The position numbers and the translations under genes were made by a program. DNA of 34,491 nucleotides, taken from Methanobacteriota archaeon (GTDB lineage: Archaea > Halobacteriota > Methanosarcinia > Methanosarcinales > Methanogasteraceae). The stretch is from contig JAYEGZ010000121.1 of NCBI GenBank assembly GCA_034659315.1, positions 1-34,491 on the forward strand, read 5' to 3'. Below are positions 4,154 through 28,479 of the stretch, in pieces. The notes under the pieces are model-generated. The model was not told the origin of the DNA, did not search any database, and saw only the letters and a list, made by a program, of their open reading frames with translations. Numbering within the stretch: position 1 is the stretch's first letter; each line of letters opens with the position of its first letter.

Positions 4154-5095
4154 ATGGACCAACCTGCCCGGGAAACCGCATGGAACACAACCCGGATGAA
4201 CGCCCCCGGATCAATGAGCGTCGTCTGTATAGCGTTTGTGCTGTCGCTGTACGTGATTGCATGCATACCAGCCTGTGCCGGAAATGTCCATGAGGCAACC
4301 ATCTTCTACTTTGATGGCGACATCAAGACCGGTCGCGCCATAGATCTGGAACAGGGCTACATGCTCCGGGTCAAGGAGGTCATGAATGACAGCGCGACGA
4401 TCGACATATCAAATGGCGGTAAGAAAATTGAAACCCATGATATATCCAAAGAGAGTTCTTATACGCTTGAAAAGAGGCTTGGCGACATTAATTACGACAT
4501 CATAAAAATATCGCTGGTAGGAGCTAATACTACGTCAAACACGGTTTCGTTGACCATTGAACAGCACATCGATCCTGATCGGTCATTTGATTACCCTTTG
4601 ATCAGCGATGTGTCTGCAAACATAGGGGAAGGCGACCGGGAACATTTGGAGGAAGACTACGAACTGAGGGTGGAGTCTATTGCTGACAACAACGCCATTC
4701 TGACGCTGTACAAAGGGGATGAAACAGTTAAACATGAAAAATTGTATGTAGACGATCCCGATAAGAGGCGGTTTGTGTATATGAAGAAGATCGGGAGCGA
4801 CTATCACACCATTCTGTTTGTGGAACTGGCCCGGGTGTCATTGGACGCGGAGGGCGGGGTTGCGCACCTGCGCGGGCTTTCGCAGTTCAAGGATCCTGAA
4901 TACATCATAATGGACGATTTAGAAGAATCCGCGCAGGTGAACGAATCATTACCAAGTGACTGCAGCGGCAGTGATAACTGGAACATTCGGCTTGCAGAGT
5001 CCGCGGCTTTCAGATATCTGTTGAGTGGTTGCGTGTTTGCCGCCATATTCGTATTGATCCTCTCAGTTACAAGAATGGGACAGAAACGCAGGTGA
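4154..5095 (+). CDS. surface protein with signal peptide, two S-layer-like half modules and a C-terminal TM anchor
   Basis: Hydrophobic N-terminus MSVVCIAFVLSLYVIACIPACAG. There are two related segments: LEQGYMLRVKEVMNDSATIDISNGGKKIE and LEEDYELRVESIADNNAILTLYKGDETVK. The C-terminal TM is CVFAAIFVLILSV followed by the basic tail RMGQKRR. Alternative ATG starts are at 4196 and 4214. Confidence 0.7.
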   Translation: MDQPARETAWNTTRMNAPGSMSVVCIAFVLSLYVIACIPACAGNVHEATIFYFDGDIKTGRAIDLEQGYMLRVKEVMNDSATIDISNGGKKIETHDISKESSYTLEKRLGDINYDIIKISLVGANTTSNTVSLTIEQHIDPDRSFDYPLISDVSANIGEGDREHLEEDYELRVESIADNNAILTLYKGDETVKHEKLYVDDPDKRRFVYMKKIGSDYHTILFVELARVSLDAEGGVAHLRGLSQFKDPEYIIMDDLEESAQVNESLPSDCSGSDNWNIRLAESAAFRYLLSGCVFAAIFVLILSVTRMGQKRR

Positions 5096-7281: not shown

Positions 7282-8619
7282 TTATACAAACAGCTTCTTC
7301 ACCTTTGCCAGTGCCGGCGCCAGCGCGAAGATTACCACCCGGTCGCCTGCCTGGATCTGGTGCGTGCCCCGCGGTACGATCACCTCGTTCCTGCGCACGA
7401 TCATGCCGATGATGGCGCCTTTCGGAAATTTGATCCGACCAAGTGTCTTCTTTGTTATCTTTGCACCGGGCGATGCGACCAGTTCAACCAGCTCGGCTTG
7501 CTTTTCCTCAATAGCGGCGAGCGATTCGACCCCTGCGCCCGCGGTGACGCGCAGGACGCTGTTGATGGTTGCATATTTTGGAGACAGCGCCGCGTCGATG
7601 CCAACTCGCTCAAACAACTCCATATACTCCGACCGATCGACCTTGGCGATGATCTTCCGGGTGCCAAGTTGCTTTGCGAGCAGCAGACAGAGCAGATTTC
7701 TTTCATCGCTATCGGTTGCTGCAATGACCGCATCCATCTCAGCAACACCCTCAGACTTTAGCATCATCTCGTCGGTGCCGTCACCGTGCAACACAAGTAC
7801 GCCAGGTAGCATGTCAGCGATCTCTACGCACCGCTCCGCATCCGCCTCGATGATCTTGAGGTCGGTGTCGCCATGTTTTGCGAGCAGTTTTGCGATGTAG
7901 AACCCAACGGTGCCTGCGCCGATTATCATGACCTTGTTGTGCTGGCTCGGCGTGTCACCAAACAACTCTCCAATCTCCTCTATCGACTCTGGTTTGCCGA
8001 TTACAATCACATGGTCACCTTCGCGCATGACATCGTCACCATGCGGGATGATCACATCATCGCCCCGGATCAACGCACTGATAACGCAGCAATCAGGAAT
8101 CCTGGCATCAGCAAGTGGTATCTCGTCAAGTGCCGTATCAGGTCCCACCTTGAACTCGATCATCTCGACTTTGCCTTCGGCGAACGCATCCATGCTAACC
8201 GCAGACGGTATCGATATGATCTCAGTAACCACTGATGCAAGTGTCAGTTCAGGGCAGATCATATAATCGATTCCGATCTGCTCCCGATTGGTGATCGGCT
8301 TGTTGATATAATCCGGGCTTGAGACTCGGGCAATCGTCATGCATTTCCTTGCGACTTTTTTTGACAGTAGTTTTGCCGCAATGCATGCAACGATATTAAT
8401 CTCGTCGTTGCCTGTGACCGCAACCACGAGATCCGCCGGAAAAGCACGCTTCAAGATATTAATATCCGCACCATTCCCCTGAAGGACTTGCACGTCCAGA
8501 TCATTCGCTCGTTCGCAAGCTTCCTCTCGTTTATCGATGAGAATAATGTCGTTATTTGCGTACAGCGCCTTCGCGATCGAGTGTCCGACCTCACCGGCAC
8601 CGATGGTTACGATTTTCAT
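7282..8619 (-). CDS. trkA: Trk-type K+ transport NAD-binding regulatory protein TrkA (two RCK N-C units)
   Basis: It has two Rossmann motifs, IGAGEVG and IGAGTVG, each followed by an RCK_C-like segment. 445 aa. No trkH is in the window. Confidence 0.9.
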   Translation of the reverse strand: MKIVTIGAGEVGHSIAKALYANNDIILIDKREEACERANDLDVQVLQGNGADINILKRAFPADLVVAVTGNDEINIVACIAAKLLSKKVARKCMTIARVSSPDYINKPITNREQIGIDYMICPELTLASVVTEIISIPSAVSMDAFAEGKVEMIEFKVGPDTALDEIPLADARIPDCCVISALIRGDDVIIPHGDDVMREGDHVIVIGKPESIEEIGELFGDTPSQHNKVMIIGAGTVGFYIAKLLAKHGDTDLKIIEADAERCVEIADMLPGVLVLHGDGTDEMMLKSEGVAEMDAVIAATDSDERNLLCLLLAKQLGTRKIIAKVDRSEYMELFERVGIDAALSPKYATINSVLRVTAGAGVESLAAIEEKQAELVELVASPGAKITKKTLGRIKFPKGAIIGMIVRRNEVIVPRGTHQIQAGDRVVIFALAPALAKVKKLFV

Positions 8620-11227: not shown

Positions 11228-11405
11228 TGTATAACTCCCTTAAACCAATAATTTCTATGCAATACATTAGTTATAAACATGTTGGTGATTGTTGGGCGGA
11301 TTTGCGAGGCTATTTAATCCGCCTGAAACCCCCGGAAAAACTGCCATCATCCATGCACACATTTTTGCGCGTGCAAGCTCGCGCGTCTGGCATGGTTGGT
11401 AGGGA

Positions 11406-11479
11406 TGGGCTCGCTGCGATTCGAACGCAGGATCCCCGCCGTGTGAAGGCGATGTCATAACCGACTAGACCACGAGCCC
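11406..11479 (-). tRNA. tRNA-Val (anticodon CAC), no intron, CCA not encoded
   Basis: The reverse complement is GGGCTCGTGGTCTAGTCGGTTATGACATCGCCTTCACACGGCGGGGATCCTGCGTTCGAATCGCAGCGAGCCCA. It folds as a 7-bp acceptor stem, D arm, anticodon loop TTCACAC and T loop TTCGAAT. Confidence 0.93.
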
Positions 11480-11558
11480 ATGACTAATGGTTTAGAGTAT
11501 GGATAACAATATAAAGATTACGTGAACAAAGCGGATATGACCAATGTGGACATGACCA

Positions 11559-16231: not shown

Positions 16232-16326
16232 AATATCATGGTTCCTTAGTCTGGCAAATACACATAAATGATTCAGATCCTTTGCTTTTCCGTAACATAT
16301 AAGTGATAGATACCCGACCAATACGC

Positions 16327-18102
16327 ATGGTTGCACGCAACATGCGAAGAATCGGCATCGTGATCGGCTCAGTGATAATAGTAGCAATCGTGATTATTGC
16401 GCTTGCAAACCATCTCAATCATAAATCTGATACAGAGATCAACTCCTACCGCTTTTATGGGAATCTGAGCATAAACGGGGATCACGCGCCCCGGCACACC
16501 ACGATCATCGCAAAGATCGGAAACCGGACGTGCGGGGCTACAGACCTAATATCACCAGGAACGTATGATCTCGAGGTGTTTGCACATCCCGGTACCAAAA
16601 AATACGTCTCGTTCTGGATAAAAACATCTTCAATGCAATCTGCGGTGAATGCAGCTCAGAAACGCACGCTGCCACATACCAAAAAGTGTTTACTTGATCT
16701 TACGGTTGAAATCAGCGATTCAGATCTCACCCGCGCGGCTTTGCACATGATGGCGCCAGAACCCGCCGAAAGAACTGATGCAGAAACCAATCCCGCGCCC
16801 GCCCCCACGTCCACCCAGTCCCTACCCCCAGCCCCAACATCGCAGACCCTGTATCAGCACGACCCGATGTTATGGGACATTGTGATCAGCGAAGTGATGT
16901 GGGATGGGGATGAGTACCTCGAACTCTACAATACGCTCGACCGCACCATCTGCATCGAGAACTGGACGATTACAAAAGGGTCTGGTGCGGTAAACGACAG
17001 TATAGCGGTGACCCTAAAGCATGGCGCAATCATACCGTCGCACGGCTATTACCTGATCGCAAGTAATGGTGCTGTGACCTGTAAACCGGATCAGATCACA
17101 AATCTTACACTCAAAAACAGTGGCGAGGTATTGCAGCTCTTCAATGGCTTTTCCATAATATCAAAGAGGATTGATGTTGTGAACCGTGATGGAAACTGGT
17201 TTGCCGGGAAGAACGATGACGTTGGGCAGTCCATGGAAAGAATTTCTCTGGAAAACGGTGCAAACCCCGATAACTGGTACACTTCGCTTGGATATATGTG
17301 CGGGCGTATCGGTACTCCCGGAAAGGAAAATTCGATCCCTGATAGAAACCCTCCTGAAATGACAATTGTCAGCGATCTGATTGGTGCAAACGATGATATT
17401 GTCGTCTCTTTCGATGAACGGATCGATATTTCGACGCTGCGCATATCCGTGATCGGTCCATATCATGGGTGGATCTCCGGGCATATCATCGGTGACGACG
17501 ACATGAAAGGCGCCCTCTTTGATCCGGACAACCCGCTTCAGGCGGGGCAGCATAGCGTCATGGTGACCTGCCGGGATCCGTCTGACAACTTTGTAGAATG
17601 TGATTTCTTGTTGACAGTTGCAGGCGTAGATGTAGGCGCGCCAGATGATGTGGTCGATGATGCGCCGGAACAAGTTCCTGCGCCGACACCAGATCCAACA
17701 CCCACCCCGGATCCCGGCGTCGCCACAAGAATCGTCGTGAACGAACTGATGCCAAATCCAATCGGGCGTGATCGCGGGAACGAGACTACAGAACTGTACA
17801 ACTACGGCGATGAGTCGGTCGATATTGGCGGCTGGGTTATTAAGAATGAGGATGGTGACGCGCACGAGATTCCGGCGGGAAAGATGATCGATGCGCATGG
17901 ATATTACTTGACAAAGGAGATACAGCTCGATAACAGTGGCGGGCAGGTGCTTTTGTATCGTGATGGCGAGGAAATTGACCGGAGTATCGCTTACATGGAT
18001 TCGACCGAAGGTGAGTCATGGCAGCGGCGGACTGACGGGCTTGATACTGATAGCGATGGCGACTGGACCCGGGCGCGTCCGACATTTGGGGTGGCTGGGT
18101 GA
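16327..18102 (+). CDS. membrane-anchored surface protein with two lamin-tail domains (LTD) and a central Ig-like domain
   Basis: N-terminal TM IGIVIGSVIIVAIVIIALA. LTD-like segments are ISEVMWDGDEYLELYN...ENWTI...HGYYLIAS...KNSGEVLQLFNG and VVNELMPNP...TELYNYGDESVDIGGWVI...HGYYL...DNSGGQVLLYRDG. Pro/Thr linkers are present. An A/T-rich box about 27 nt upstream of ATG 16327 suggests a leaderless start; the track's GTG 16303 is the alternative. Confidence 0.8.
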   Translation: MVARNMRRIGIVIGSVIIVAIVIIALANHLNHKSDTEINSYRFYGNLSINGDHAPRHTTIIAKIGNRTCGATDLISPGTYDLEVFAHPGTKKYVSFWIKTSSMQSAVNAAQKRTLPHTKKCLLDLTVEISDSDLTRAALHMMAPEPAERTDAETNPAPAPTSTQSLPPAPTSQTLYQHDPMLWDIVISEVMWDGDEYLELYNTLDRTICIENWTITKGSGAVNDSIAVTLKHGAIIPSHGYYLIASNGAVTCKPDQITNLTLKNSGEVLQLFNGFSIISKRIDVVNRDGNWFAGKNDDVGQSMERISLENGANPDNWYTSLGYMCGRIGTPGKENSIPDRNPPEMTIVSDLIGANDDIVVSFDERIDISTLRISVIGPYHGWISGHIIGDDDMKGALFDPDNPLQAGQHSVMVTCRDPSDNFVECDFLLTVAGVDVGAPDDVVDDAPEQVPAPTPDPTPTPDPGVATRIVVNELMPNPIGRDRGNETTELYNYGDESVDIGGWVIKNEDGDAHEIPAGKMIDAHGYYLTKEIQLDNSGGQVLLYRDGEEIDRSIAYMDSTEGESWQRRTDGLDTDSDGDWTRARPTFGVAG

Positions 18103-18170
18103 ATCGAGCACGAAAGCCCGTGCACAAAATTTATAGCGGATTAAAGAGCGATACTTAATAGGTGGTTTTG

Positions 18171-20348
18171 ATGGAGAAGGTATTCGGAATGAATAATAGC
18201 TGTGTGATGATGGGTTTGCTTGTATTGGTGTTTGTGGGATGCGCGTGTGCAGAACCCGGTGGCAATGACATAAAAACTCTTGTGACGGGCGAACAATGGA
18301 ATCTTGGTGGAGGATACGCGCTCGAAGCAAAGCAGATCGATCTTGAGGGTAACAAAGTTTGGCTATGTCTGTATAAAGATGGAGGGGAGATTGACAGCGA
18401 GGTAGTCGACACCGGCAGCCCCAATTTACAGAATCGAGTATACGCGTACACAGAGGGTGAGGTACTGATATTTTCGTGTTACGTCTCTGCGGTCTTCCGT
18501 GGAACCTGCTCCAATATGGTGCAGATCAACGATGTTTTTCTGATCGGTGGTCTTTTTTCGGGCGATTACGGGTTTGCGCTGGATGATTACCGGATCGGTT
18601 CGGTGTGGGATCTGTCCGAAGGCTATTCCATCGCAGCAAATGATGTTGCCTATCTGGGAAATAAGGCACGGATCACCCTACTGAAAGACGGCGTGGTGGT
18701 CGATGAAAGAATGCTAACCGAGAAATTCATGGCGCCCATTGATTCGGATTGCCGGTACAGCTATTCCGTAGATGAAACTGAGATCATCACAGCGACCCTG
18801 AAAGCAGCATTCCACGGGTGTGAATCAGACGCGATTCAACTTGCGGAGGTCTACCAGCGTTCGGAGATAGGTGGCAGCATACTGATTGACAACGAATCTC
18901 ATCTATTTAGATCAGCAGATCCGACCGGCATCCCATGGGATCTTACAGATGGATATGTGCTTACGTCGAAAGACATTGGTTTTAATGACGGTGAGGTCTG
19001 GCTTGAACTATCAAAGAATGGCATGATAATGAAGGAGATGATATTGAACGAGGATTTTGTCAGTACGTTCACCTGCACCTCTGGCACAGGCCGCATAAAC
19101 GGTGTGGTTGATCATGTATTCCACGGGTCCGGGGCAAACGTGGTCAAACTCATGAACGTCAGCCAGTACTCGGATGTTAACGGAACCGCCCTGCTCGTTG
19201 ATGAGACTCATTTCTACAAGACATCGGATCCGGATGGCGCTCCATGGAGACTGTCGGATGATTACGTGCTTACAGTGAAGCATCTTGATATCTACGGTGA
19301 TAAAGTATGGCTTGAGCTATCAAAAGACGGTGACATGGTCAAAGAAGGCATACTTGAGTCAGGCGATCTGTTTGAGTACAGAAACGGTCTTGAATCGGTT
19401 GATTGCACAGTCGAGGCTGTGTTTAAGGGAACACTGACAGACGTTGTCAAACTCAGGAATGTCAATCAGTATTCCAGCACCGGCACACGGTTGATTGATG
19501 ATGGATCAAAGACGTATGCGAGTGCAGATCCTACAGGCGAGGTGTGGGAGCGCTGGGAAGGTTACTCGCTTGACCCAAAGGATATTGATCTGGAGGGGAA
19601 TAAGGTCTGGCTATCACTATCAAAGAACGGTGCGGTCGTGAAGGATGCAATCGTTGACTCCGGAGAATCTGATGCTGATAGATGGTTCAAATACTATAAT
19701 GCAACAGGCGCGCTGGTGTTCAGCACATACGTTGATGCGGTTTTCCGCGGCACAGATTCCAATCTGATCCAGTTGAAGTACACAACCCAGTATTCCGAGA
19801 TCGATGGAAGAGTATTTATCGAGCCAAGTACTGAATCGTGGCAGTTGCAGGAAGGGTATTATCTGACTGCACAGGAGATGTACTGGAATGACTCCGTGTG
19901 GCTGCAACTTTCGAAAAACGATAAATTAGTTGATGAAGGTCTGTTTTATGGTTCATTCGACCTACAAAACGACACTGCTGGTCACACGATGGTTTTCGGA
20001 ACGATTAGCAGCTATAATCCCTGGCAGGATTATGTGCAACTGACTTCTGTTACACAGTATCAGGAATCAACCGGAGCAGTGCTGGCAACAGGGCAATCGG
20101 CGACTTTGTATGCATCATGGAGCCTTAAAACTGATAAAAAGACATTATGTACGGGGGTTACGATCATCGAACACAGAGGCGACCCTGACCGCGACGGTGA
20201 AATCACCCCAACTGATGCCATGATCGCGCTTCAGATCGTAGCTGGTGGCGGATGTAATGCTGATGCGGACGTGAGTGGCGACGGGAATGTTACCTCGCTT
20301 GATGCACTGATGATCCTGCAGGCGGCGGCTGGCGCGATAGAATTATGA
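18171..20348 (+). CDS. secreted protein with six S-layer duplication-type modules and a C-terminal type I dockerin
   Basis: AGGTGG lies 6 nt before ATG 18171 and there is a signal peptide (MNNSCVMMGLLVLVFVGCACA). The module motif W.L..GY.L....ID..G.KVWL.LSK.G..V, followed by AVF.G....V.L..V.QYS, occurs six times. The C-terminus is DPDRDGEITPTDA...DVSGDGNVTSLDALMILQ. Confidence 0.85.
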   Translation: MEKVFGMNNSCVMMGLLVLVFVGCACAEPGGNDIKTLVTGEQWNLGGGYALEAKQIDLEGNKVWLCLYKDGGEIDSEVVDTGSPNLQNRVYAYTEGEVLIFSCYVSAVFRGTCSNMVQINDVFLIGGLFSGDYGFALDDYRIGSVWDLSEGYSIAANDVAYLGNKARITLLKDGVVVDERMLTEKFMAPIDSDCRYSYSVDETEIITATLKAAFHGCESDAIQLAEVYQRSEIGGSILIDNESHLFRSADPTGIPWDLTDGYVLTSKDIGFNDGEVWLELSKNGMIMKEMILNEDFVSTFTCTSGTGRINGVVDHVFHGSGANVVKLMNVSQYSDVNGTALLVDETHFYKTSDPDGAPWRLSDDYVLTVKHLDIYGDKVWLELSKDGDMVKEGILESGDLFEYRNGLESVDCTVEAVFKGTLTDVVKLRNVNQYSSTGTRLIDDGSKTYASADPTGEVWERWEGYSLDPKDIDLEGNKVWLSLSKNGAVVKDAIVDSGESDADRWFKYYNATGALVFSTYVDAVFRGTDSNLIQLKYTTQYSEIDGRVFIEPSTESWQLQEGYYLTAQEMYWNDSVWLQLSKNDKLVDEGLFYGSFDLQNDTAGHTMVFGTISSYNPWQDYVQLTSVTQYQESTGAVLATGQSATLYASWSLKTDKKTLCTGVTIIEHRGDPDRDGEITPTDAMIALQIVAGGGCNADADVSGDGNVTSLDALMILQAAAGAIEL

Positions 20349-20529: not shown

Positions 20530-21648
20530 ATGTTTGAAAACATCAGGAGCATGTTTGATCAATATTCCTTTGTTGTTTCACCGGATGACCTGATCGTTTT
20601 CTTTCTAATAATCTTTCTCACCTTGACTTTGCGAAAACTCAGCATCTACATCTTCGAGAAAAAACTGGCAAAACTTGCCAAAAAGACGAAGACCGAGATT
20701 GATGACCTGCTCGTAGTCGCATTCAAATCACCTCTTGGCTACATGATCATGGTCTGTGGAATCTATGCTGCCATCGCTTCGCTGCATCTGCCGGATCAGA
20801 TGGGGATATTGAATATCGCATGGTTCCATCATTTCTTTTTCACGATTGCATTCACGTTCGTAGTCCTCCTGCTCCTGCTCAACCTGATCAATGTCTTAGC
20901 ATATCAGCTGTATAAGGTGACACGGAAGACCGAGACGAAACTTGATGAGCAACTGGCGCCGCTTCTCATAAAGAGCCTCAAGGTCGTTGTGGTGACGATC
21001 ACGATCCTTGCCATGATGGATAACCTTGAGTACGACATCACATCGCTTCTGGCTGGTCTTGGCGTCGGCGGGCTTGCGCTCGCTCTGGCGGCGCAGGAGA
21101 CCGTAAGTAACATATTCGGATCGCTCACGGTCTTCTCCGACCGGTCTTTTCACATCGGCGACTGGATTAAGGTCGGGGAAGTGGAGGGAACTGTTGAAGA
21201 CGTGGGGCTCCGGTCCACACGGATACGCAGGTTTGATCAGGCGCTCGTGACCGTTCCAAACAGCCGTTTCATCAGATCCGACATTATAAACTTCACCCGG
21301 ATGAAAAAACGCCGAATAAAGTTCTATCTCGGCGTATCGTACAAAACGAGCAGGAAACAGATGGAAGAGGTTGTTGAGGGGATCAAACAGATCATAAAAG
21401 AAGACTCCAATTTCGATCACACATTCTACATGGTTCACTTCACAGATTTTGGTGCATACTCGCTTGATGTCTTCATATACTGCTTCACAAAGACGACGGT
21501 GTGGGATGAGTTCCTTGCGGTTCGCGAGGAGTTTAACCTCAAAATCATGCACCTCCTCGAAGAGATGGGTGTAGAGATTGCGTACCCCACGCAGACGATC
21601 TGTCTGGAAGGTGGTGTGGTGGAACGTGACATAGACCGCGATCTCTGA
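20530..21648 (+). CDS. small-conductance mechanosensitive channel (MscS family)
   Basis: N-terminal TM helices are followed by an MscS core: LAGLGVGGLALALAAQETVSNIFGSL...HIGDWIKV....GTVEDVGLRSTRIR..D...V.VPNS. Confidence 0.9.
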   Translation: MFENIRSMFDQYSFVVSPDDLIVFFLIIFLTLTLRKLSIYIFEKKLAKLAKKTKTEIDDLLVVAFKSPLGYMIMVCGIYAAIASLHLPDQMGILNIAWFHHFFFTIAFTFVVLLLLLNLINVLAYQLYKVTRKTETKLDEQLAPLLIKSLKVVVVTITILAMMDNLEYDITSLLAGLGVGGLALALAAQETVSNIFGSLTVFSDRSFHIGDWIKVGEVEGTVEDVGLRSTRIRRFDQALVTVPNSRFIRSDIINFTRMKKRRIKFYLGVSYKTSRKQMEEVVEGIKQIIKEDSNFDHTFYMVHFTDFGAYSLDVFIYCFTKTTVWDEFLAVREEFNLKIMHLLEEMGVEIAYPTQTICLEGGVVERDIDRDL

Positions 21649-21795: not shown

Positions 21796-23262
21796 TCACT
21801 CATCACCGTTCTCGACGCCAACTGTTGCGAAGAATCGCTTCATCACCACTTCCTCTGCCATCCGCATCAGTGCCTGCCGATCTCTTGTGTCGCTGAACAC
21901 CCCAAGTGGAATCTGAGCGCCAGCCATGGTCGCATGTCCTCCAGCGGAGCCTGCCGGAGCGAATGCTTTCTGCATGATATCTCCAAGATTCAGCCGGATG
22001 TCACGGCTCCTTCCTGAGATGTGTATGCAATCATCCCCGATTCCGTAGACGAGAACCGTTGTGATTCCTTCGAGGTTCAGCAGGTAGTCAGCAGCCTGGG
22101 CAAGTGCGTCCCGGTCCCGGATGATGCCCGCATTCGTGACCAGATAGCTGCCCTTGACCTTCCGGTTCCGTATGGCTTCCCCGAACGTCTCCAGCGTCTC
22201 GGTCGAGATCGCCGGTGTTTCGATCCGGTTCAGGATCTCGTGGTCTGCAAGCGGGTACAGGAATGCCGCAGCAGTTAGATCAACAAGATTTGCGTTCCGC
22301 TTGAATCCAAGTGTATCTGTACGGATACCGTACAACAACGCGGTTGCAAGGTCTTTGTCGACTGGAATACCCATCTCCTGTAGATATTTTGTCAGAATCG
22401 TCGCCGTAGCCCCGCTGTTTGGACGGATGTCTATATGATCCGCACGTATCTTCTTCATATCCACAGGATGGTGGTCGATGATGATGTCCACGACGGCATC
22501 TTTGGGAAGTAGATTGTTCTCGCCCGGTAGCGAGCAGTCGACCATCGCAATCTTCTTAAAATCGCTCATCGGGTGTTCGTTGTGTCCATCGAGCTTGTCC
22601 ATACCGATATGGAGCAGATTCACGAAGGCTTTGTTCTCCTGATGCCCGATCTCCCCCCGGTACACAATCTCGGATTCTGCGCCAACGCTTGCGGCAATTG
22701 TTTTTAATGCAACTGCGCTTGACATGGCATCAGGATCCGGGTTATCATGTACTACAATCGCGAGTTTCTTATTGCCAATCGAGCGCAGAATATCAAGAAT
22801 GTTTGACGCATCTCTGACAGACTCGGCAAGCTCGATGATCCGGATCGTGGCGTCCGCAACGATCCTCGGCGGCACGATTACGCTGTCTGCACCCGCGTCT
22901 TCAAGCTCGCTCTTTGCAACAGTGCTCGGAGCGCGTGCAATCACCTGAATGTCCTTGGAGATCTTCTTCACAGTGGCAATTGCACTGCTATTTGCCGCAA
23001 CATCGGAACTCAGCACCAGTACGAATTCTATGCTCTTGATGTCGATTGGGTCAAGCAGATGGGGGTCACTGAGATCTCCCACAACGGTTTCAAACTCCTG
23101 TTCACGCAGAGTCTCGACCTTTCTGACATCCTTGTCGATCATCACGACTTTCTTATTCCGATTGGTCAATTCTCTGGCGACCGCAGACCCAATCCTCCCA
23201 CTACCTATAACGATATACGGCGCTTGCGGTTTTTTATCGCCATTCTGGTCATCGTTCTGCAT
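21796..23262 (-). CDS. RCK (TrkA_N)-DHH-DHHA1 phosphoesterase
   Basis: N-terminal Rossmann motif IGSGRIGSAVARELT with VMIDKD. DHH motifs are VHDNPDPDAMSS and IIIDHHP. DHHA1 motif is GGHATMAGAQ. ATG 23262 is preferred over the track's GTG 23271. Confidence 0.85.
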   Translation of the reverse strand: MQNDDQNGDKKPQAPYIVIGSGRIGSAVARELTNRNKKVVMIDKDVRKVETLREQEFETVVGDLSDPHLLDPIDIKSIEFVLVLSSDVAANSSAIATVKKISKDIQVIARAPSTVAKSELEDAGADSVIVPPRIVADATIRIIELAESVRDASNILDILRSIGNKKLAIVVHDNPDPDAMSSAVALKTIAASVGAESEIVYRGEIGHQENKAFVNLLHIGMDKLDGHNEHPMSDFKKIAMVDCSLPGENNLLPKDAVVDIIIDHHPVDMKKIRADHIDIRPNSGATATILTKYLQEMGIPVDKDLATALLYGIRTDTLGFKRNANLVDLTAAAFLYPLADHEILNRIETPAISTETLETFGEAIRNRKVKGSYLVTNAGIIRDRDALAQAADYLLNLEGITTVLVYGIGDDCIHISGRSRDIRLNLGDIMQKAFAPAGSAGGHATMAGAQIPLGVFSDTRDRQALMRMAEEVVMKRFFATVGVENGDE

Positions 23263-23703
23263 ACAAGTCACCTTGCCTGAACTGTACGTCGACGCGGGAA
23301 CCTTTATACAAGTGTTTCATCCCCAGTCATTAACCGAATCATTGTACATATACATATCGGATACGAATCTCCACATTCTAACATTACGTTAGCACATCGA
23401 CGTAAGTAGCACATACTATGTGCAGGGTCTGTTTTAACACTTTTGGTGGTCATGGCTTGAAAACCCCTCCAAAAAGTCCCTGCAATAATTCTCATGTGCG
23501 TGGCAACCGCGGATGCGCGAGAGTACTTGATGATGCTGCGGTTAATCATACACAATCACGCAGACATCCCGGAACTGTCAACCCATTAACTTTAAATGAG
23601 TTTACACCATAAGTATCATTGCGTATGATCCATACGTTACAGGGAGTTGATCGGCAAGGTTGGGTCCGGTTGGTAGTAAGTTTTAAATGCACCTTGAACA
23701 TGC

Positions 23704-24669
23704 ATGAATACATTTACCAATGGTGATGAAATGAAAAGGCAGCAGACGACAAACAAACCCCGACCAATGGGAGTCCGGGGCGCGCTGGATAGGGGCGGTA
23801 ATGGGCTTGACTCACACATTGCAACGCATTATGGTGATGTGTTGGCGGTTGCGACCGAGGACGTTGTGACAGTTCCGCCGACTACACCGATCATGACTAC
23901 GGTCAGAACGATGCTTGAACATGGATTCCGGAGAATTCCTATAGCGGATGCCGGCACACAGCAGTTGAAAGGCATCATCGTGTGCAAGGACATCGTTGAT
24001 TTTCTGTGCGGCGGACCAAGACACTTACTTGTCACCAACCGATTTGATGGCAATCTACTCGCCGCGGTCAACGAGGAGATCCGTGCGATCATGAAGACTG
24101 AGGTTCCGTATCTGGATACGAACGCCTCAATCAGCGATGCGCTGAAGCTGATGCATGATAAGTCGGTCGGGTGCCTGCCGATCATCGGTGAGGCTAAACG
24201 CGTATCTGCGATCGTGACCGAACAGGATTTCATGCGCCTGATTGCAGACGTCAAGACTGGTGTCGCTATAAATGAGTACATGTCTACAAATGTGACCACC
24301 GTCGAACCGGACGTCGAAATCGGGGTTGCGGGCAAACTGATGGTCGATAATAAGTTTAGACGGCTCCCGGTTGTCAAAAATGGGATATTGCTCGGGATTG
24401 CCACCGCTTTTGATATGTTGCGTTTTCTTGGCAGCGGCGAAGCACTTAAAAAGGGTGCAAACGGCATAGAGGATACACTGACGACACCAGTCAAATCGTT
24501 AATCACGCGGGATGTTATCTGGGCGACATCGGATCACGATCTTGGCGAGGTTGCTGGTATGATGGATACAAATAATGTGGGTTCGATTCCGATCATCGAT
24601 CAAGGTGTTCTCACAGGAATAGTAACTGAAAGAGACATTGTCCGGGCGTTAGCTACACTGAAGCAATAG
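23704..24669 (+). CDS. CBS-domain protein (four CBS motifs, no effector domain)
   Basis: Repeated CBS signatures (…RRIPIAD…, …GCLPIIGE…, …RRLPVVKNG.LLGI.T..D, …GSIPIIDQGVLTGIVTERDI). 321 aa. Confidence 0.85.
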   Translation: MNTFTNGDEMKRQQTTNKPRPMGVRGALDRGGNGLDSHIATHYGDVLAVATEDVVTVPPTTPIMTTVRTMLEHGFRRIPIADAGTQQLKGIIVCKDIVDFLCGGPRHLLVTNRFDGNLLAAVNEEIRAIMKTEVPYLDTNASISDALKLMHDKSVGCLPIIGEAKRVSAIVTEQDFMRLIADVKTGVAINEYMSTNVTTVEPDVEIGVAGKLMVDNKFRRLPVVKNGILLGIATAFDMLRFLGSGEALKKGANGIEDTLTTPVKSLITRDVIWATSDHDLGEVAGMMDTNNVGSIPIIDQGVLTGIVTERDIVRALATLKQ

Positions 24670-24693
24670 ACAATGAAATGACGTAATAACAAC

Positions 24694-25500
24694 ATGACAG
24701 AGATGAGGGTTAGGGATATAATGAGCACTCAGGTGTACGCGGTTACACCGGGGGAGCCACTTTCGCGGGCACGTAACCTGATGCTTCGCCACAAGATCAG
24801 CAGGTTGCTGGTGCTGATGCATGACGAGCCTGTCGGCATGCTCACCAAAGCCGATATCACATGCAGGCTTAATCAGGCAGAGCCGCAGTGGCGTAGGCGC
24901 CCGATAGACCAGATTCCAGTCCAGTTGGTCATGACAAAGTCTTTGATCGGCATATATCCGGATGCCACACTGCCACAAGCATGTGAACTGCTGCTTGAGA
25001 ACGATATTGGCGGGCTTGTCGTCCGCGATGAGGATCTACACGGGATCATCACCAAGTGGGACATGATCCTGTACATCTCAAAGCATTCAGCAGATCTACG
25101 TGCGTGTGACATCATGTCTGATTTTATTGCAGTCGTGCATCGCCAGCATTCGGTTGGGCACGTCATAAATACGATGGATGCCGAGGATGTGGACCGGGTC
25201 GTCGTTCTTGAATACGGTGGAAAGCCGATCGGCATGATCACAAATTCCAATCTGGCGTTTGGGTGTGCGTCTGACCCACGTGGCAGAGACAAGAAGTTTC
25301 TTGAAGTTCCGGTCGTTGCGGAGGACATTATGTCCACGCCACTGATAACGATTCCGGAGGATGGTCTTGTAACCGATGCGGCGCGGACAATGGTCGATGA
25401 ACTTATTAACAGCATCATCGTTCTTGATGCTGAATCTGATGTTGTTGGGATCCTGGATCAGGAGAGTATACTCCGAGGGATCATTATGCTTGGAGAATAA
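24694..25500 (+). CDS. CBS-domain protein (four CBS motifs, no effector domain)
   Basis: ISRLLVL...PVGMLTKADI, GGLVVRDEDLHGIITKWDM, DRVVVLEYGGKPIGMITNSN, NSIIVLDAESDVVGILDQESI. It starts 24 nt after the previous stop. Confidence 0.85.
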   Translation: MTEMRVRDIMSTQVYAVTPGEPLSRARNLMLRHKISRLLVLMHDEPVGMLTKADITCRLNQAEPQWRRRPIDQIPVQLVMTKSLIGIYPDATLPQACELLLENDIGGLVVRDEDLHGIITKWDMILYISKHSADLRACDIMSDFIAVVHRQHSVGHVINTMDAEDVDRVVVLEYGGKPIGMITNSNLAFGCASDPRGRDKKFLEVPVVAEDIMSTPLITIPEDGLVTDAARTMVDELINSIIVLDAESDVVGILDQESILRGIIMLGE

Positions 25501-25502
25501 TT

Positions 25503-26270
25503 ATGAATGTATCTGAAATTATGGTAAAGCCAGTGCGCATAGAGAAGTCGGAGAATTTGTCTCATGCAATGGACCTTATGAGCAAGCACGAAACCAGACG
25601 GTTACTGGTCACAAACAGGGGCGAACTTATGGGTGTGTTAACTATGCGAAACATTGCACGCGCACTTGGCACGAGCAGAAAACCGGGAATGCCAGCATCA
25701 TCGTTGCATGTCGCAACAGCGGTCGGCGATGAGTATTCCACAGTTCCGCCTGAGATGGGTGTGAACGATGCCATATCAATTTTACAGCAACAACATGGCA
25801 TACTTTGTGTAATGGATGGTGATGATATTATTGGCTGGGTCACGCCTGAAGAGATCTTGAAGACCTGTGGTATGGAGGGGTTTGCTGCTGAATTCATGAA
25901 AACGCCGATCACTGCCGCACCGGGCGACCGTGTTGTTCATGTGCGAAGGATAATGATGGACCGGGATATCGGGCGGCTTCCGGTGGTTGACGAGTATCAG
26001 GTGGCAGGGATCATCACCGAGAAGGATATAGCAAAGGCGATGCGGGCGATCCGCGACATGGTTCCTGCAAACCAGCAAGATAGCCGCGTCAAGAACCTGC
26101 TGACAGAGGATGTTATGAGTCGCGGCGTCAAAACCGTGTACACAAACTCCCCCATATCGGCGGTTGCGGATATTGCACTTAAGTTTGGCTACGGCGGAGT
26201 CCCTGTGCTCAATCTCGAAGAGGATCTTGTTGGATTCATCACTCGCAGAGATCTTGTTGCAAAGATGTGA
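25503..26270 (+). CDS. CBS-domain protein (four CBS motifs, no effector domain)
   Basis: RRLLVTNRGELMGVLTMRNI, GILCVMDGDDIIGWVTPEEI, GRLPVVDEYQVAGIITEKDI, GGVPVLNLEEDLVGFITRRDL. It starts 2 nt after the previous stop. Confidence 0.85.
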   Translation: MNVSEIMVKPVRIEKSENLSHAMDLMSKHETRRLLVTNRGELMGVLTMRNIARALGTSRKPGMPASSLHVATAVGDEYSTVPPEMGVNDAISILQQQHGILCVMDGDDIIGWVTPEEILKTCGMEGFAAEFMKTPITAAPGDRVVHVRRIMMDRDIGRLPVVDEYQVAGIITEKDIAKAMRAIRDMVPANQQDSRVKNLLTEDVMSRGVKTVYTNSPISAVADIALKFGYGGVPVLNLEEDLVGFITRRDLVAKM

Positions 26271-26375: not shown

Positions 26376-26792
26376 CTATCGCACCAGTATATCGCCATTG
26401 CCGGTTATCGCGATCTCGAAATCGACCACCACCACCCTGTGCCGTATCCTGCGCCCGGTAAGTTCCCGGATTCTTGATGCGAGTGCGACGCCATCATAAC
26501 GTACATGCATATCCGCATCCGATGCATCAGCTTTTGAATAGACCATCCCGACCAAATCATCAAGACCGGTGCCCTCCACAACTTTGAACCAGACCGGTGC
26601 GACAAGCATCTTGACAAATTCCAGGGTGTTTTCAGCCTGCTCGATATTCTTGCGTGCCGTTTTTTCGATGGCAGAGATGTTCTGTTTCGTCGTGCCCAGT
26701 TTGGCAGCGATCCCTTCCTGAGAGCAGCCATCGTTCCGCAGTCTCAGTACCTGCATCTGCCGCTCTGTGAGTGTTGTATTACTTGCTGCCAT
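26376..26792 (-). CDS. tfx: Tfx-family DNA-binding transcriptional regulator
   Basis: LTERQMQVLRLRNDGCSQEGIAAKLGTTKQNISAIEKTARKNIEQAENTL matches the Tfx N-terminal HTH layout. Start is set at ATG 26792 (MAASNTT); upstream in-frame ATGs are at 26807 and 26813. Confidence 0.8.
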   Translation of the reverse strand: MAASNTTLTERQMQVLRLRNDGCSQEGIAAKLGTTKQNISAIEKTARKNIEQAENTLEFVKMLVAPVWFKVVEGTGLDDLVGMVYSKADASDADMHVRYDGVALASRIRELTGRRIRHRVVVVDFEIAITGNGDILVR

Positions 26793-26944
26793 TGATTGTC
26801 TCTGCATGTACATGGCATATCAAGGTATGGATACTCAGGGTTGGACAAAACATCGTGGAGACCCGGCAGTTTCCAAAATCGGGTGATCCAAGCTTGCGGC
26901 TATGCCTAAAATCAATCTATAGCTGCAGGAAAATAAGAAGTCTA

Positions 26945-27229
26945 TTAATCCGGGAGCAATTTAGACAGATCGTCATAGAAATTGAGCACCAACTCAGTTA
27001 CCGGATTTTCACCATTCAGCGTAAACGTGCGAATCTGTTTTCCAACCTTCTTTTCGTCGATGATCCCGATTGCGAGCAGCGGTTCGATGACTCTTGAAAC
27101 ACTCGAATGGGAGAGTCCGGTCTCCTCCGCGATGCCCGAGAGGTACGTGAATGTGCCCCGGTTCTTCATCAGATTCTCAAGAACGATCATCTGTGCCGTC
27201 CTTCCAAACGTTTTTTCGAGTGCGCTCAT
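26945..27229 (-). CDS. small winged-helix transcriptional regulator
   Basis: 95 aa from ATG 27229 (MSALEKTFGRTAQMIVLENL...YLSGIAEETGLSHSSVSRVIEPLLAIGII). CTTATAAATAA lies about 25 nt upstream, which suggests a near-leaderless transcript. The track's longer N-terminus looks non-coding. Confidence 0.7.
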   Translation of the reverse strand: MSALEKTFGRTAQMIVLENLMKNRGTFTYLSGIAEETGLSHSSVSRVIEPLLAIGIIDEKKVGKQIRTFTLNGENPVTELVLNFYDDLSKLLPD

Positions 27230-27415
27230 GTGTTCATCTGTGCGTCCATTATTTATAAGATTACCCGTTTTTAAATTTGATAGGGCTGCTGTATGCCGGA
27301 TTTTTTGATCAATCGGCAGATAAGGTGTCACGGTCAGACGGCAGTAAACGGCTGCCCGGGTGAACGTGTGGAAGGACATGTTAATAAGCACTGTTGCACG
27401 CATAAATTATCATCG

Positions 27416-27736
27416 ATGGCACGAAAGAACCGTAAGAAACTGATCAGGGCTATTGCACAGCAGCAGATACAGCGACTGTTTGAGCTTGCGGATGTGATAT
27501 CGGAAACGCGCCCTGAATTAAGCGACCGTTATATATATCTGGCAAAACAGATCGGGATGCGGCACCGGGTGCGAATCCCCTCGCATCTGAAACGCAGGAT
27601 GTGCAAGCATTGCGGAAAGTATCTTGTTCCGGGCAGAACGTGCCGGGTACGGCTTAATTACGCTCGTGTCGTCATCACGTGTTATGCATGTGGCAAACAG
27701 ATTAGATATCCCTACAAAACACAGAGGAATCAGTGA
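27416..27736 (+). CDS. rnp4: RNase P protein component 4 (Rnp4/Rpp21 family)
   Basis: MARKNRKKLIRAIAQQQIQRLFELA... followed by the Zn ribbon CKHCGKYL...CYACG. 106 aa from ATG 27416. Confidence 0.88.
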   Translation: MARKNRKKLIRAIAQQQIQRLFELADVISETRPELSDRYIYLAKQIGMRHRVRIPSHLKRRMCKHCGKYLVPGRTCRVRLNYARVVITCYACGKQIRYPYKTQRNQ

Positions 27737-27738
27737 TT

Positions 27739-28479
27739 ATGGCAAAAAATATCATCCCGCTATCGACGGTCGACTGGTACGGGCGAGCCGTGACCGTGGT
27801 TTTCCTGATGGGCTGCCCGTTTCGCTGCCCGTACTGCCAGAACCACGCGCTCCTCGAGATGCGGAAACTGACTGCAGAACCGGCTGATGTTGGAGAGATT
27901 AAATCAGAGATCAAAAAGAACTCCCTCCTTATAAGTGGTGTCGTTTTCACCGGAGGCGAGCCGTTTCATCAATTAGATGCGCTCCGGCATCTCGCGGAGT
28001 TCACTCACAAACAGGGGTTGTTGACAGGCGTTGAAACGAATGGGTACTATACCGAGCGGATCAGGCAGATGATCGATGCGCATCTCGTTGACATGATATG
28101 CATGGACGTGAAGGCTCCACTGAAACGGGATGCATACCTGCATATCTGCGGCATCGATGCGGCAGACCATGTCGTGGATTCGTTGAGGCTCTGTGACTTG
28201 TGCAGGGGAAACGAGATCGACTTTGAGGTACGAACGACGGTATTCCCCGATCTTGTTGGGTCACCCCATGAGATACAATCGATCGCCACGCAGGTTAGAG
28301 AGTTTGCTGGTGATGTGCGATACATCCTTCAGCAGGGTATACCGGAGCACGCATGGAAGAAGCCATCTCCGCGGTCGTTTACGCGGGACGAGTTGATGGC
28401 GCTTGCAAGAAACGCAAAGCCAGCTCTGTCAGACGTCCGAATCCGGACAAAGGAATTTGGCGAGGAGCGTGTAGGGTAG
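27739..28479 (+). CDS. radical SAM activating enzyme (anaerobic ribonucleotide reductase activase-like)
   Basis: STVDWYGRAVTVVFLMGCPFRCPYCQN (CxxxCxxC cluster motif) and VVFTGGEP. GTG 27733, overlapping the rnp4 stop, is the alternative start. Confidence 0.75.
   Translation: MAKNIIPLSTVDWYGRAVTVVFLMGCPFRCPYCQNHALLEMRKLTAEPADVGEIKSEIKKNSLLISGVVFTGGEPFHQLDALRHLAEFTHKQGLLTGVETNGYYTERIRQMIDAHLVDMICMDVKAPLKRDAYLHICGIDAADHVVDSLRLCDLCRGNEIDFEVRTTVFPDLVGSPHEIQSIATQVREFAGDVRYILQQGIPEHAWKKPSPRSFTRDELMALARNAKPALSDVRIRTKEFGEERVG

Follow-up and report, generated by a model that had tools for sequence, protein, structure and literature searches.

An sriBCD ribosome hibernation operon beside a putative c-di-AMP phosphodiesterase gene in an ANME-2-related lineage of the Methanosarcinales

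Comparative analysis of contig JAYEGZ010000121.1 from an archaeon of the Methanogasteraceae, order Methanosarcinales (GenBank assembly GCA_034659315.1, positions 1 to 34,491, the whole of this 34,491-nt stretch being referred to as the window), concerned a gene for a protein joining an N-terminal TrkA_N-type RCK domain to DHH and DHHA1 domains (RCK-DHH) and three genes, transcribed divergently from it, for proteins built of CBS motifs. Sequence comparison identifies the CBS triplet as an sriBCD operon, with products that are one-to-one orthologs of the ribosome hibernation factors SriB, SriC and SriD, and by analogy with a characterised archaeal enzyme the RCK-DHH-DHHA1 protein is plausibly a phosphodiesterase of cyclic di-AMP (c-di-AMP) and pApA. 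The region very probably holds two independent and already-described systems that a recent rearrangement placed side by side. The features concerned, with an adjoining channel gene, are as follows:

20530..21648 (+): MscS-family mechanosensitive channel gene, 372 aa, convergent with the RCK-DHH gene
21796..23271 (-): RCK-DHH gene, 491 aa from a GTG start, 488 aa from the ATG at residue 4
23272..23703: divergent intergenic region, 432 nt, between the RCK-DHH gene and sriB
23704..24669 (+): CBS1, sriB ortholog, 321 aa as annotated
24694..25500 (+): CBS2, sriC ortholog (ARC-P type), 268 aa
25503..26270 (+): CBS3, sriD ortholog (ARC-A type), 255 aa

Gene calls and domain content

The five genes listed in the initial annotation, with their domains, motifs and spacings, were all confirmed by open reading frames (ORFs), Pfam matches and motif positions. 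The spacers between CBS1 and CBS2 and between CBS2 and CBS3 are 24 and 2 nt long, and 147 nt separate the end of the MscS gene from the stop codon of the RCK-DHH gene. In Pfam the RCK-DHH protein has TrkA_N at residues 19-134 (8.8e-27), DHH at 170-316 (6e-13) and DHHA1 at 375-470 (2e-13), and translation probably begins with the ATG codon of residue 4, giving 488 aa, the length of a 96%-identical homolog (P0001). The MscS protein matches MS_channel_1st, 2nd and 3rd. Each of the three CBS proteins has exactly four CBS motifs (E 2e-48, 5e-41 and 4e-43 for CBS1, CBS2 and CBS3, respectively), and no other domain was above threshold in Pfam. The initial description of these proteins as lacking an output domain thus stands at the level of Pfam; beyond it the description is misleading, the output elements being ribosome-binding extensions and loops that lie outside the Pfam models, namely an N-terminal extension of about 45 residues in CBS1 and the inter-CBS loops.

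The ATG at 23704 is probably not the true start of sriB. In relatives the protein starts at 'MKRQ', corresponding in the window to the ATG at 23731, which gives 312 aa and is preceded by a GGTGAT Shine-Dalgarno-like element and, at about 23683-23689, by a conserved TTTAAAT box. Among relatives, gene callers place the start of SriB further downstream still (299-aa calls) and thereby trim off the functional N-terminal extension.

Orthology of the CBS triplet with SriB, SriC and SriD

Searches of PDB sequences matched CBS1 to 9znf_5 (E 8.4e-85), CBS2 to 9zni_6 (E 7.8e-66) and CBS3 to 9zni_7 and 9zng_7 (E 1.3e-84), while paralog cross-matches to the remaining Sri chains reached only 1e-9 to 1e-16, with 7e-16 the best for CBS1. 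Entries 9ZNF, 9ZNG and 9ZNI are 70S ribosomes of Methanosarcina acetivorans with SriA-SriB, with SriD and with SriC-SriD, respectively (Nissley et al., Nat Commun 2026, PMC13454478).

Reciprocal BLAST used the operons of Methanosalsum zhilinae (locus L088) and of a metagenome-assembled genome (MAG) of the anaerobic methanotrophic (ANME) group ANME-2a (L087), in both of which the gene order is dual-CBS, sriA, sriB, sriC, sriD and RNA ligase, the first 4xCBS gene of this type of operon matching 9znf_4, which is SriA. Against both references CBS1 and SriB were reciprocal best matches at 50-51% identity and 310 bits, as were CBS2 and SriC (43% identity, 220-225 bits) and CBS3 and SriD (45-55% identity); every other pairing of a window CBS protein with a Sri protein scored at most 62 bits. 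The gene order B-C-D is preserved, and the start of sriD lies 2 nt past the stop codon of sriC.

Features described for the individual factors are found as well. Long-type SriB is defined by more than 15 residues aligned to M. acetivorans SriB 27-56 (PMC13454478, Methods), and the window SriB is of the long type, with 25 residues aligning to M. acetivorans SriB 33-56 and a further 8 to 17 residues upstream. In SriC the AEPQWRRRPIDQIP element is conserved. The window SriD retains Asn50 in CBS1 and the CBS3 aspartate, D175, which aligns with D176 of ARC-A and of M. zhilinae SriD; in ARC-A, Asn50 marks an empty CBS1 site and D176 anchors AMP in CBS3 (bioRxiv 10.64898/2026.01.19.700304). The identification of the triplet as an sriBCD operon thus follows from Sri orthology, from these feature tests and from the lack of a fourth CBS gene in the window.

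Two other readings of the triplet, as anti-phage CBS proteins (DS11) or as CBS-pyrophosphatases, were rejected, the matches being far below the curated cut-offs. The initial proposal that the CBS proteins act as soluble sensors or buffers of a second messenger gives way to their assignment, through reciprocal best matches, as orthologs of SriB, SriC and SriD, while the expectation that CBS proteins of this kind bind adenine nucleotides holds, an AMP/ATP switch having been reported for the orthologs. For annotation this is a warning that triplets and quadruplets of archaeal 'CBS domain-containing protein' genes should be taken for ribosome hibernation operons and not for orphan nucleotide sensors.

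Sri function in orthologs and predicted roles in the window

The sriABCD operon of M. acetivorans encodes four 4xCBS proteins, each of which inhibits translation in vitro, SriD most strongly, and which protect the small subunit and rRNA during prolonged stationary phase, as established by translation inhibition, deletion phenotypes and cryo-EM (PMC13454478). The factors bind in tandem, with SriA at the A/P sites of the large subunit, the N-terminal extension of SriB threading into the peptidyl-transferase centre and exit tunnel, SriC at the P/E sites of the small subunit and SriD at the A site, decoding centre and mRNA channel (PMC13454478). The Methanolobus orthologs of SriC and SriD, termed ARC-P and ARC-A, carry AMP in their CBS pockets and are retained on ribosomes with AMP and released with ATP (bioRxiv 10.64898/2026.01.19.700304).

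By analogy with these orthologs, the three tandem-Bateman (4xCBS) products of the window operon would each block a functional site on ribosomes that stand idle. In the large subunit the SriB extension is predicted to enter the exit tunnel and the peptidyl-transferase centre; in the small subunit SriC would occupy the P/E site, and SriD the A site together with the decoding centre and the mRNA channel. CBS clefts filled with AMP would hold the factors on the ribosome and ATP would release them, such that at low energy translation may be parked and the ribosomes shielded from degradation. Since the operon is without sriA and its SriC is without the hairpin that reaches uS11 and the 3' end of 16S rRNA, SriD, together with SriC, is probably the main brake in this lineage.

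Absence of adjacent sriA and shortened loop of SriC

Neither sriA nor any other fourth CBS gene was found in the window, which contains no CBS-like ORF of at least 60 aa beyond the three annotated ones. The 432-nt intergenic region was also considered as the site of an overlooked sriA pseudogene; this was rejected, the region being too short for a gene of 260-280 aa and the window having no further CBS-like ORF. In the relatives L003, L085, L086, L089 and L090, sriA likewise does not adjoin sriBCD, a statement that covers these loci, as the rest of the genomes may hold an unlinked sriA or hibA. SriB is known to occur at times without SriA (PMC13454478).

Regarding SriC, the loop at about residues 186-205, equivalent to M. 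acetivorans 191-225, has 16 aa and a net charge of +1 in the window, compared with 35 aa and a charge of +3 to +5 in M. acetivorans (+5), M. zhilinae and ANME-2a. In M. acetivorans this loop is a beta-hairpin that contacts uS11 and sequesters the 3' end of 16S rRNA (PMC13454478). The six sriA-less relatives examined, among them the five named above, all (6/6) share this deletion of 19 aa, so that loss of sriA and loss of the SriC hairpin coincide, yet inside one single clade. The short loop resembles the 'SriC-short' feature, a likeness that concerns the loop; the 'SriC-short' class was defined mainly in Nitrososphaerales (PMC13454478).

In most genomes of this clade, sriBCD lies directly upstream of, and co-directional with, a superoperon of proteasome-alpha, SBDS and the exosome genes Rrp4, Rrp41 and Rrp42:

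L003, 6013..9641: sriBCD-superoperon locus
L085, 6754..11954: sriBCD-superoperon locus
L089, 4492..10937: sriBCD-superoperon locus
L090, 3442..7662: sriBCD-superoperon locus

This arrangement sets ribosome-protecting factors beside the presumed rRNA-degrading machinery; at this place the window has genes for a Tfx-family protein and a winged helix-turn-helix (wHTH) protein. ANME archaea grow extremely slowly and are energy-limited, and a trimmed hibernation set in them could reveal which Sri components are essential.

The RCK-DHH-DHHA1 protein as a putative c-di-AMP phosphodiesterase

The RCK-DHH protein has the motifs GSGRIG at residue 23, HDNPDPD at 175, DHH at 266-268 and GGH at 444-446, together with the further DHH-family motifs VDCS at 244 (D244), RTDT at 317 (D319) and GRSRDIR at 420, and its catalytic residues and those of the Rossmann site (GxGxxG...D) are invariant in a family alignment of 12 sequences. 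Among the candidates scored, more than 4,000 homologs were found at E<=1e-10; at E<=1e-30 the family comprises 538 clusters at 50% identity, with full-length members down to about 30% identity. These homologs carry the names 'DHH family phosphoesterase', 'potassium transporter TrkA' and 'nanoRNase/pAp phosphatase (c-di-AMP/oligoRNAs hydrolase)', and annotations of the JGI use naming of the COG0618 type for RCK-DHH proteins like that of the window. Among the 50%-identity representatives, the named distant family members recovered were of Methanofastidiosum and none was of Thermococcales.

Structure comparison agrees with this architecture. The N-terminal domain matches 3llv, described as the 'NAD(P)-binding domain of an exopolyphosphatase-related protein' of Archaeoglobus fulgidus (E 1.7e-16; Foldseek TM 0.83), and for the catalytic part the top Foldseek matches are the GdpP catalytic domain, TmPDE, DhhP, Rv2837c and NrnA (E 5e-14 to 1e-9), with phmmer matches at E 3e-9 to 1e-6. 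The AlphaFold2 model, in which the predicted local distance difference test (pLDDT) score is 70-90 for RCK and DHH and 30-60 for DHHA1, served for fold assignment and not for inter-domain geometry; together with Foldseek it agrees with the order TrkA_N, DHH and DHHA1. No RCK_C (TrkA_C) domain was detected in the protein by Pfam, residues 135-169 forming a helical linker in the model.

The same TrkA_N-DHH-DHHA1 order is that of PyaPDE of Pyrococcus yayanosii, a c-di-AMP phosphodiesterase characterised in 2023, and loss of its ortholog in Thermococcus kodakarensis, the single phosphodiesterase there, tripled c-di-AMP (Jin et al. 2023, Protein Sci 32:e4829, as described in PMC12699388). An architecture that had been put forward as uncharacterised is thus already known, while the enzyme class proposed, a phosphodiesterase of the c-di-AMP/pApA type, is reasonable in view of the domains, the invariant motifs, the fold matches and the PyaPDE architecture. 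RCK_N domains bind ATP, ADP, NADH or NAD+, and the putative c-di-AMP site of RCK proteins is in RCK_C (PMC12699388); the window protein has RCK_N only, so that the initial placing of its RCK part among c-di-AMP receptors was not upheld.

The RCK-DHH protein would accordingly be classed by architecture as a metal-dependent enzyme of the PyaPDE kind, predicted to convert c-di-AMP to pApA and then to AMP. The metal of the DHH superfamily is typically Mn2+. The RCK_N domain, with its GxGxxG...D site intact, most likely binds NAD(H) or ATP/ADP and may tune activity or oligomerisation. For one homolog of 53% identity (P0076) the annotation gives a Candidatus Methanoperedens plasmid as its location, and this plasmid may be a Borg-like extrachromosomal element.

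Synteny and the divergent intergenic region

Gene neighbourhoods were surveyed at 80 GTDB species-level loci anchored on RCK-DHH, extending 10 kb to either side and covering 46-91% RCK-DHH identity to the window. The sriBCD triplet stood beside RCK-DHH in 1/80 loci (L005, on the same contig as L003), and at one further locus, L079 of the Archaeoglobaceae, a single SriB-like ORF was near RCK-DHH; no MscS homolog was found within 10 kb at any of the 80 loci. No conserved neighbourhood was thus recovered, an outcome that the initial annotation had itself named as refuting its proposal. Recurrent neighbours of RCK-DHH were genes for YjeF/Nnr (36/80), phosphoribosyl pyrophosphate (PRPP) synthetase (33/80) and MoaC (26/80); across Methanosarcinales RCK-DHH is most often divergent from a cluster of YjeF/Nnr (NAD(P)HX repair), PRPP synthetase and MoaC (L005-L084). 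In M. acetivorans the RCK-DHH gene (55-56% identity) lies between YjeF/Nnr and AglB and is unlinked to the sri operon.

In the closest relatives, L003, L089 and L090 (RCK-DHH 91% and SriB 84-87% identity), an MC1 gene convergent with RCK-DHH is followed by RCK-DHH, divergent sriBCD, and then psmA, SBDS and the exosome genes. Compared with these, the window has MscS in place of MC1 and Tfx in place of psmA at its outer flanks, and the MscS neighbour is unique to the window contig. At greater distance the pairing is not seen: L091 (RCK-DHH 78%) has unrelated upstream genes and no sriBCD, L085 (SriB 75%) has sriBCD with other upstream genes, and so has L086 (SriB 69%), where RCK-DHH is on another contig of the same MAG (L009). 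Pairing of RCK-DHH with sriBCD is confined to contigs with at least 91% RCK-DHH identity, in an ANME-2-related clade of genus level. As both flanks of the window differ from those of its closest relatives, the junction of RCK-DHH and sriBCD is recent and lineage-restricted, a local accident, and MscS is judged to be an unrelated convergent neighbour that does not form one unit with the phosphodiesterase.

When the 432-nt divergent region was aligned with that of L003, the 91% relative, conservation fell into discrete blocks about 250 nt apart. On the sri side there are A/T-rich TTTAAAT boxes at about 23590-23600 and 23683-23689, and on the phosphodiesterase side a conserved block at about 23325-23362; these blocks may be separate promoters of the two units. 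No Rfam family was found in this region, and scans of it for repeats and for promoters and terminators of the bacterial type gave nothing beyond chance, the sigma-70 model not being applicable to archaea.

Alternative explanations

Several observations weigh against reading the region as a phosphodiesterase and a Sri system that are both known and mutually independent. The tie to PyaPDE is one of shared architecture and not of direct sequence comparison, the preference for c-di-AMP over pApA, pAp or nanoRNA is likewise taken from architecture, and no diadenylate cyclase gene is present in the window. SriA, alongside which the extension of SriB was observed in M. acetivorans, is missing from the window, so SriB may function differently here, and the shortened loop of SriC would remove the element that contacts uS11 and the 3' end of 16S rRNA. 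The four-gene block was kept though both flanks changed, and there is a slight chance that the pairing is under selection.

Regarding the enzyme, a role mainly as a housekeeping nanoRNase or pAp phosphatase of the NrnA kind, and not as a second-messenger phosphodiesterase, is rather unlikely, though it agrees with the nanoRNase/pAp phosphatase names carried by homologs, with fold and sequence matches that include NrnA and TmPDE, of which TmPDE prefers pApA, and with conserved neighbours of RCK-DHH that belong to nucleotide metabolism (PRPP synthetase, YjeF/Nnr). The sole characterised enzyme of exactly the RCK-DHH architecture, however, degrades c-di-AMP, and deletion raises c-di-AMP in vivo (PMC12699388). 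P. yayanosii moreover has a separate DHH-family pApase homolog, structurally NrnA-like and with no RCK domain mentioned, and activities on c-di-AMP and on nanoRNA or pAp are not mutually exclusive in DHH-DHHA1 enzymes.

Joint action of the neighbours was weighed in several forms. The initial annotation had combined the phosphodiesterase, the CBS trio and MscS into one module of c-di-AMP turnover and sensing for K+/osmotic homeostasis. In Firmicutes, CbpA and CbpB/DarB, which are built of CBS domains only, serve as receptors of c-di-AMP, the window CBS proteins have weak sub-threshold NCBIfam matches to CbpB (45-50 bits), and the divergent arrangement is preserved in four closely related contigs. 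These CbpB matches are, however, far under the cut-off of 125 bits, each CBS protein is the specific ortholog of a ribosome-bound Sri factor, and MscS is convergent and replaced by MC1 in the nearest relatives. Because of the Sri orthology, the known architecture of the phosphodiesterase, the presence of RCK_N and not the c-di-AMP-binding RCK_C, and a neighbourhood that was not conserved for either the CBS triplet or MscS, the integrated module is unsupported and hardly credible, and the synteny result by itself largely refutes it. A more restricted coupling would have the phosphodiesterase and sriBCD co-regulated from the 432-nt region in this lineage, with breakdown of c-di-AMP, or of another oligonucleotide yielding AMP, sharing a stress signal with hibernation. 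In its favour, the four-gene junction is retained in the window though both flanks differ from L003, L089 and L090, several intergenic blocks are conserved with the 91% relative, and AMP, the end product of the phosphodiesterase, is the ligand that stabilises ARC/Sri factors on ribosomes. Yet the pairing occurs in one shallow clade, where there was perhaps too little divergence time, the spacing of the intergenic blocks fits two separate promoters, the flux through c-di-AMP is expected to be tiny compared with the cellular AMP pool, and a literature search returned no paper linking c-di-AMP with archaeal hibernation factors; such sharing is improbable. Functional coupling in the ANME-2-related lineage more broadly, either by co-regulation or by c-di-AMP or pApA acting on the Bateman clefts of SriB, SriC and SriD, is very improbable, the retained four-gene junction in one shallow clade being all that speaks for it. 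For c-di-AMP acting on Sri factors there is an analogy in Firmicutes, where the CBS-only protein DarB/CbpB couples c-di-AMP to the stringent response, and a coupling of this kind, if true, would tie an osmotic and K+ second messenger directly to the parking of archaeal ribosomes. As found, the region matters little, since it re-identifies two systems published in 2023-2026 whose adjacency is accidental.

Other genes in the window

Downstream of sriD are genes for a Tfx-family DNA-binding protein, a small winged-helix protein (MarR/DUF7343-like), RNase P component 4 (Rpr2) and an NrdG2-type radical-SAM activase; the wHTH and Rpr2 ORFs overlap by about 110 nt on opposite strands, and one start is probably miscalled. 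The TrkA-type regulator lies about 13 kb from RCK-DHH and is of the type containing RCK_C, which could bind c-di-AMP. As surface proteins, the S-layer and lamin-tail proteins are of a kind that is typical for Methanosarcinales and ANME. Scanning the full window with Rfam and for tRNAs yielded one tRNA, for valine, and nothing else.

4154..5095 (+): smaller S-layer-domain protein
7282..8619 (-): TrkA-type K+ uptake regulator, 445 aa, with two TrkA_N and two TrkA_C domains
11403..11480: tRNA-Val
16303..18102 (+): lamin-tail-domain protein
18162..20348 (+): large S-layer-domain protein with six PF07752 repeats and a C-terminal dockerin
26376..26813 (-): Tfx-family DNA-binding protein
26945..27403 (-): small winged-helix protein
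27293..27736 (+): RNase P component 4 (Rpr2)
27733..28479 (+): NrdG2-type radical-SAM activase

Comparison with known systems

Stand-alone CBS proteins that bind an adenine nucleotide are also found in Firmicutes as CbpB/DarB and CbpA, which differ from the window proteins in having a single Bateman module and about 140-210 aa; membership of the window proteins in these families was rejected, the scores being 45.6-50 bits for CbpB and 21.8 bits for CbpA against NCBIfam cut-offs of 125 and 150. MJ1225 of Methanocaldococcus jannaschii has been described as similar to the gamma subunit of AMP-activated protein kinase. Like the window proteins it has no domain besides its four tandem CBS motifs, and it is the top non-Sri match of the window SriB in the PDB (3KH5/3LFZ; E 7e-51), whereas with 280 aa it has no long N-terminal extension and no demonstrated role on the ribosome.

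Regarding the phosphodiesterase, assignment of RCK-DHH as a c-di-AMP receptor of the KtrA/KtrC/CpaA type was rejected for want of an RCK_C (TrkA_C) domain. The GdpP catalytic domain (5XSI/5XSP), TmPDE TM1595 (5O25), Rv2837c/CnpB (5JJU), DhhP (9R7O) and NrnA share its catalytic fold and motifs, but these bacterial DHH-DHHA1 enzymes have no N-terminal RCK_N and only 17-24% identity to it. PyaPDE has the same three domains and is, like the window protein with its full set of intact DHH and DHHA1 motifs, a euryarchaeal, cytoplasmic, stand-alone enzyme; the window protein differs in coming from an ANME-2-related lineage of Methanosarcinales, and the likeness of the two is one of architecture.

The Sri system of M. 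acetivorans and the ARC system of Methanolobus differ from the window locus in that the latter is without sriA and the upstream dual-CBS gene and has no RNA ligase gene downstream, in the hairpin loop of SriC, which is shorter here (16 aa vs 35 aa) and less positively charged, and, for Sri, in the 16-residue disordered N-terminal extension of M. acetivorans SriD, which the window SriD does not have. They are alike in their 4xCBS proteins, in a tight co-directional B-C-D operon with 43-55% identity to Methanosarcinaceae proteins, in the long extension of SriB, in the AEPxWRRRPIDQIP element of SriC, and in N50 and the CBS3 aspartate of SriD. New here is a clade of Methanosarcinales related to ANME-2 and Ca. 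Methanogaster that has sriBCD, neither an adjacent sriA nor a dual-CBS gene, a deletion of 19 residues in SriC and, in most of its genomes, the proteasome-alpha, SBDS and exosome superoperon directly after sriBCD. Since the published survey already includes archaea that hold only sri subsets and a 'SriC-short' class (PMC13454478), the sriBCD operon of this clade is at most a minor variant of the published Sri systems that adds little new to them.

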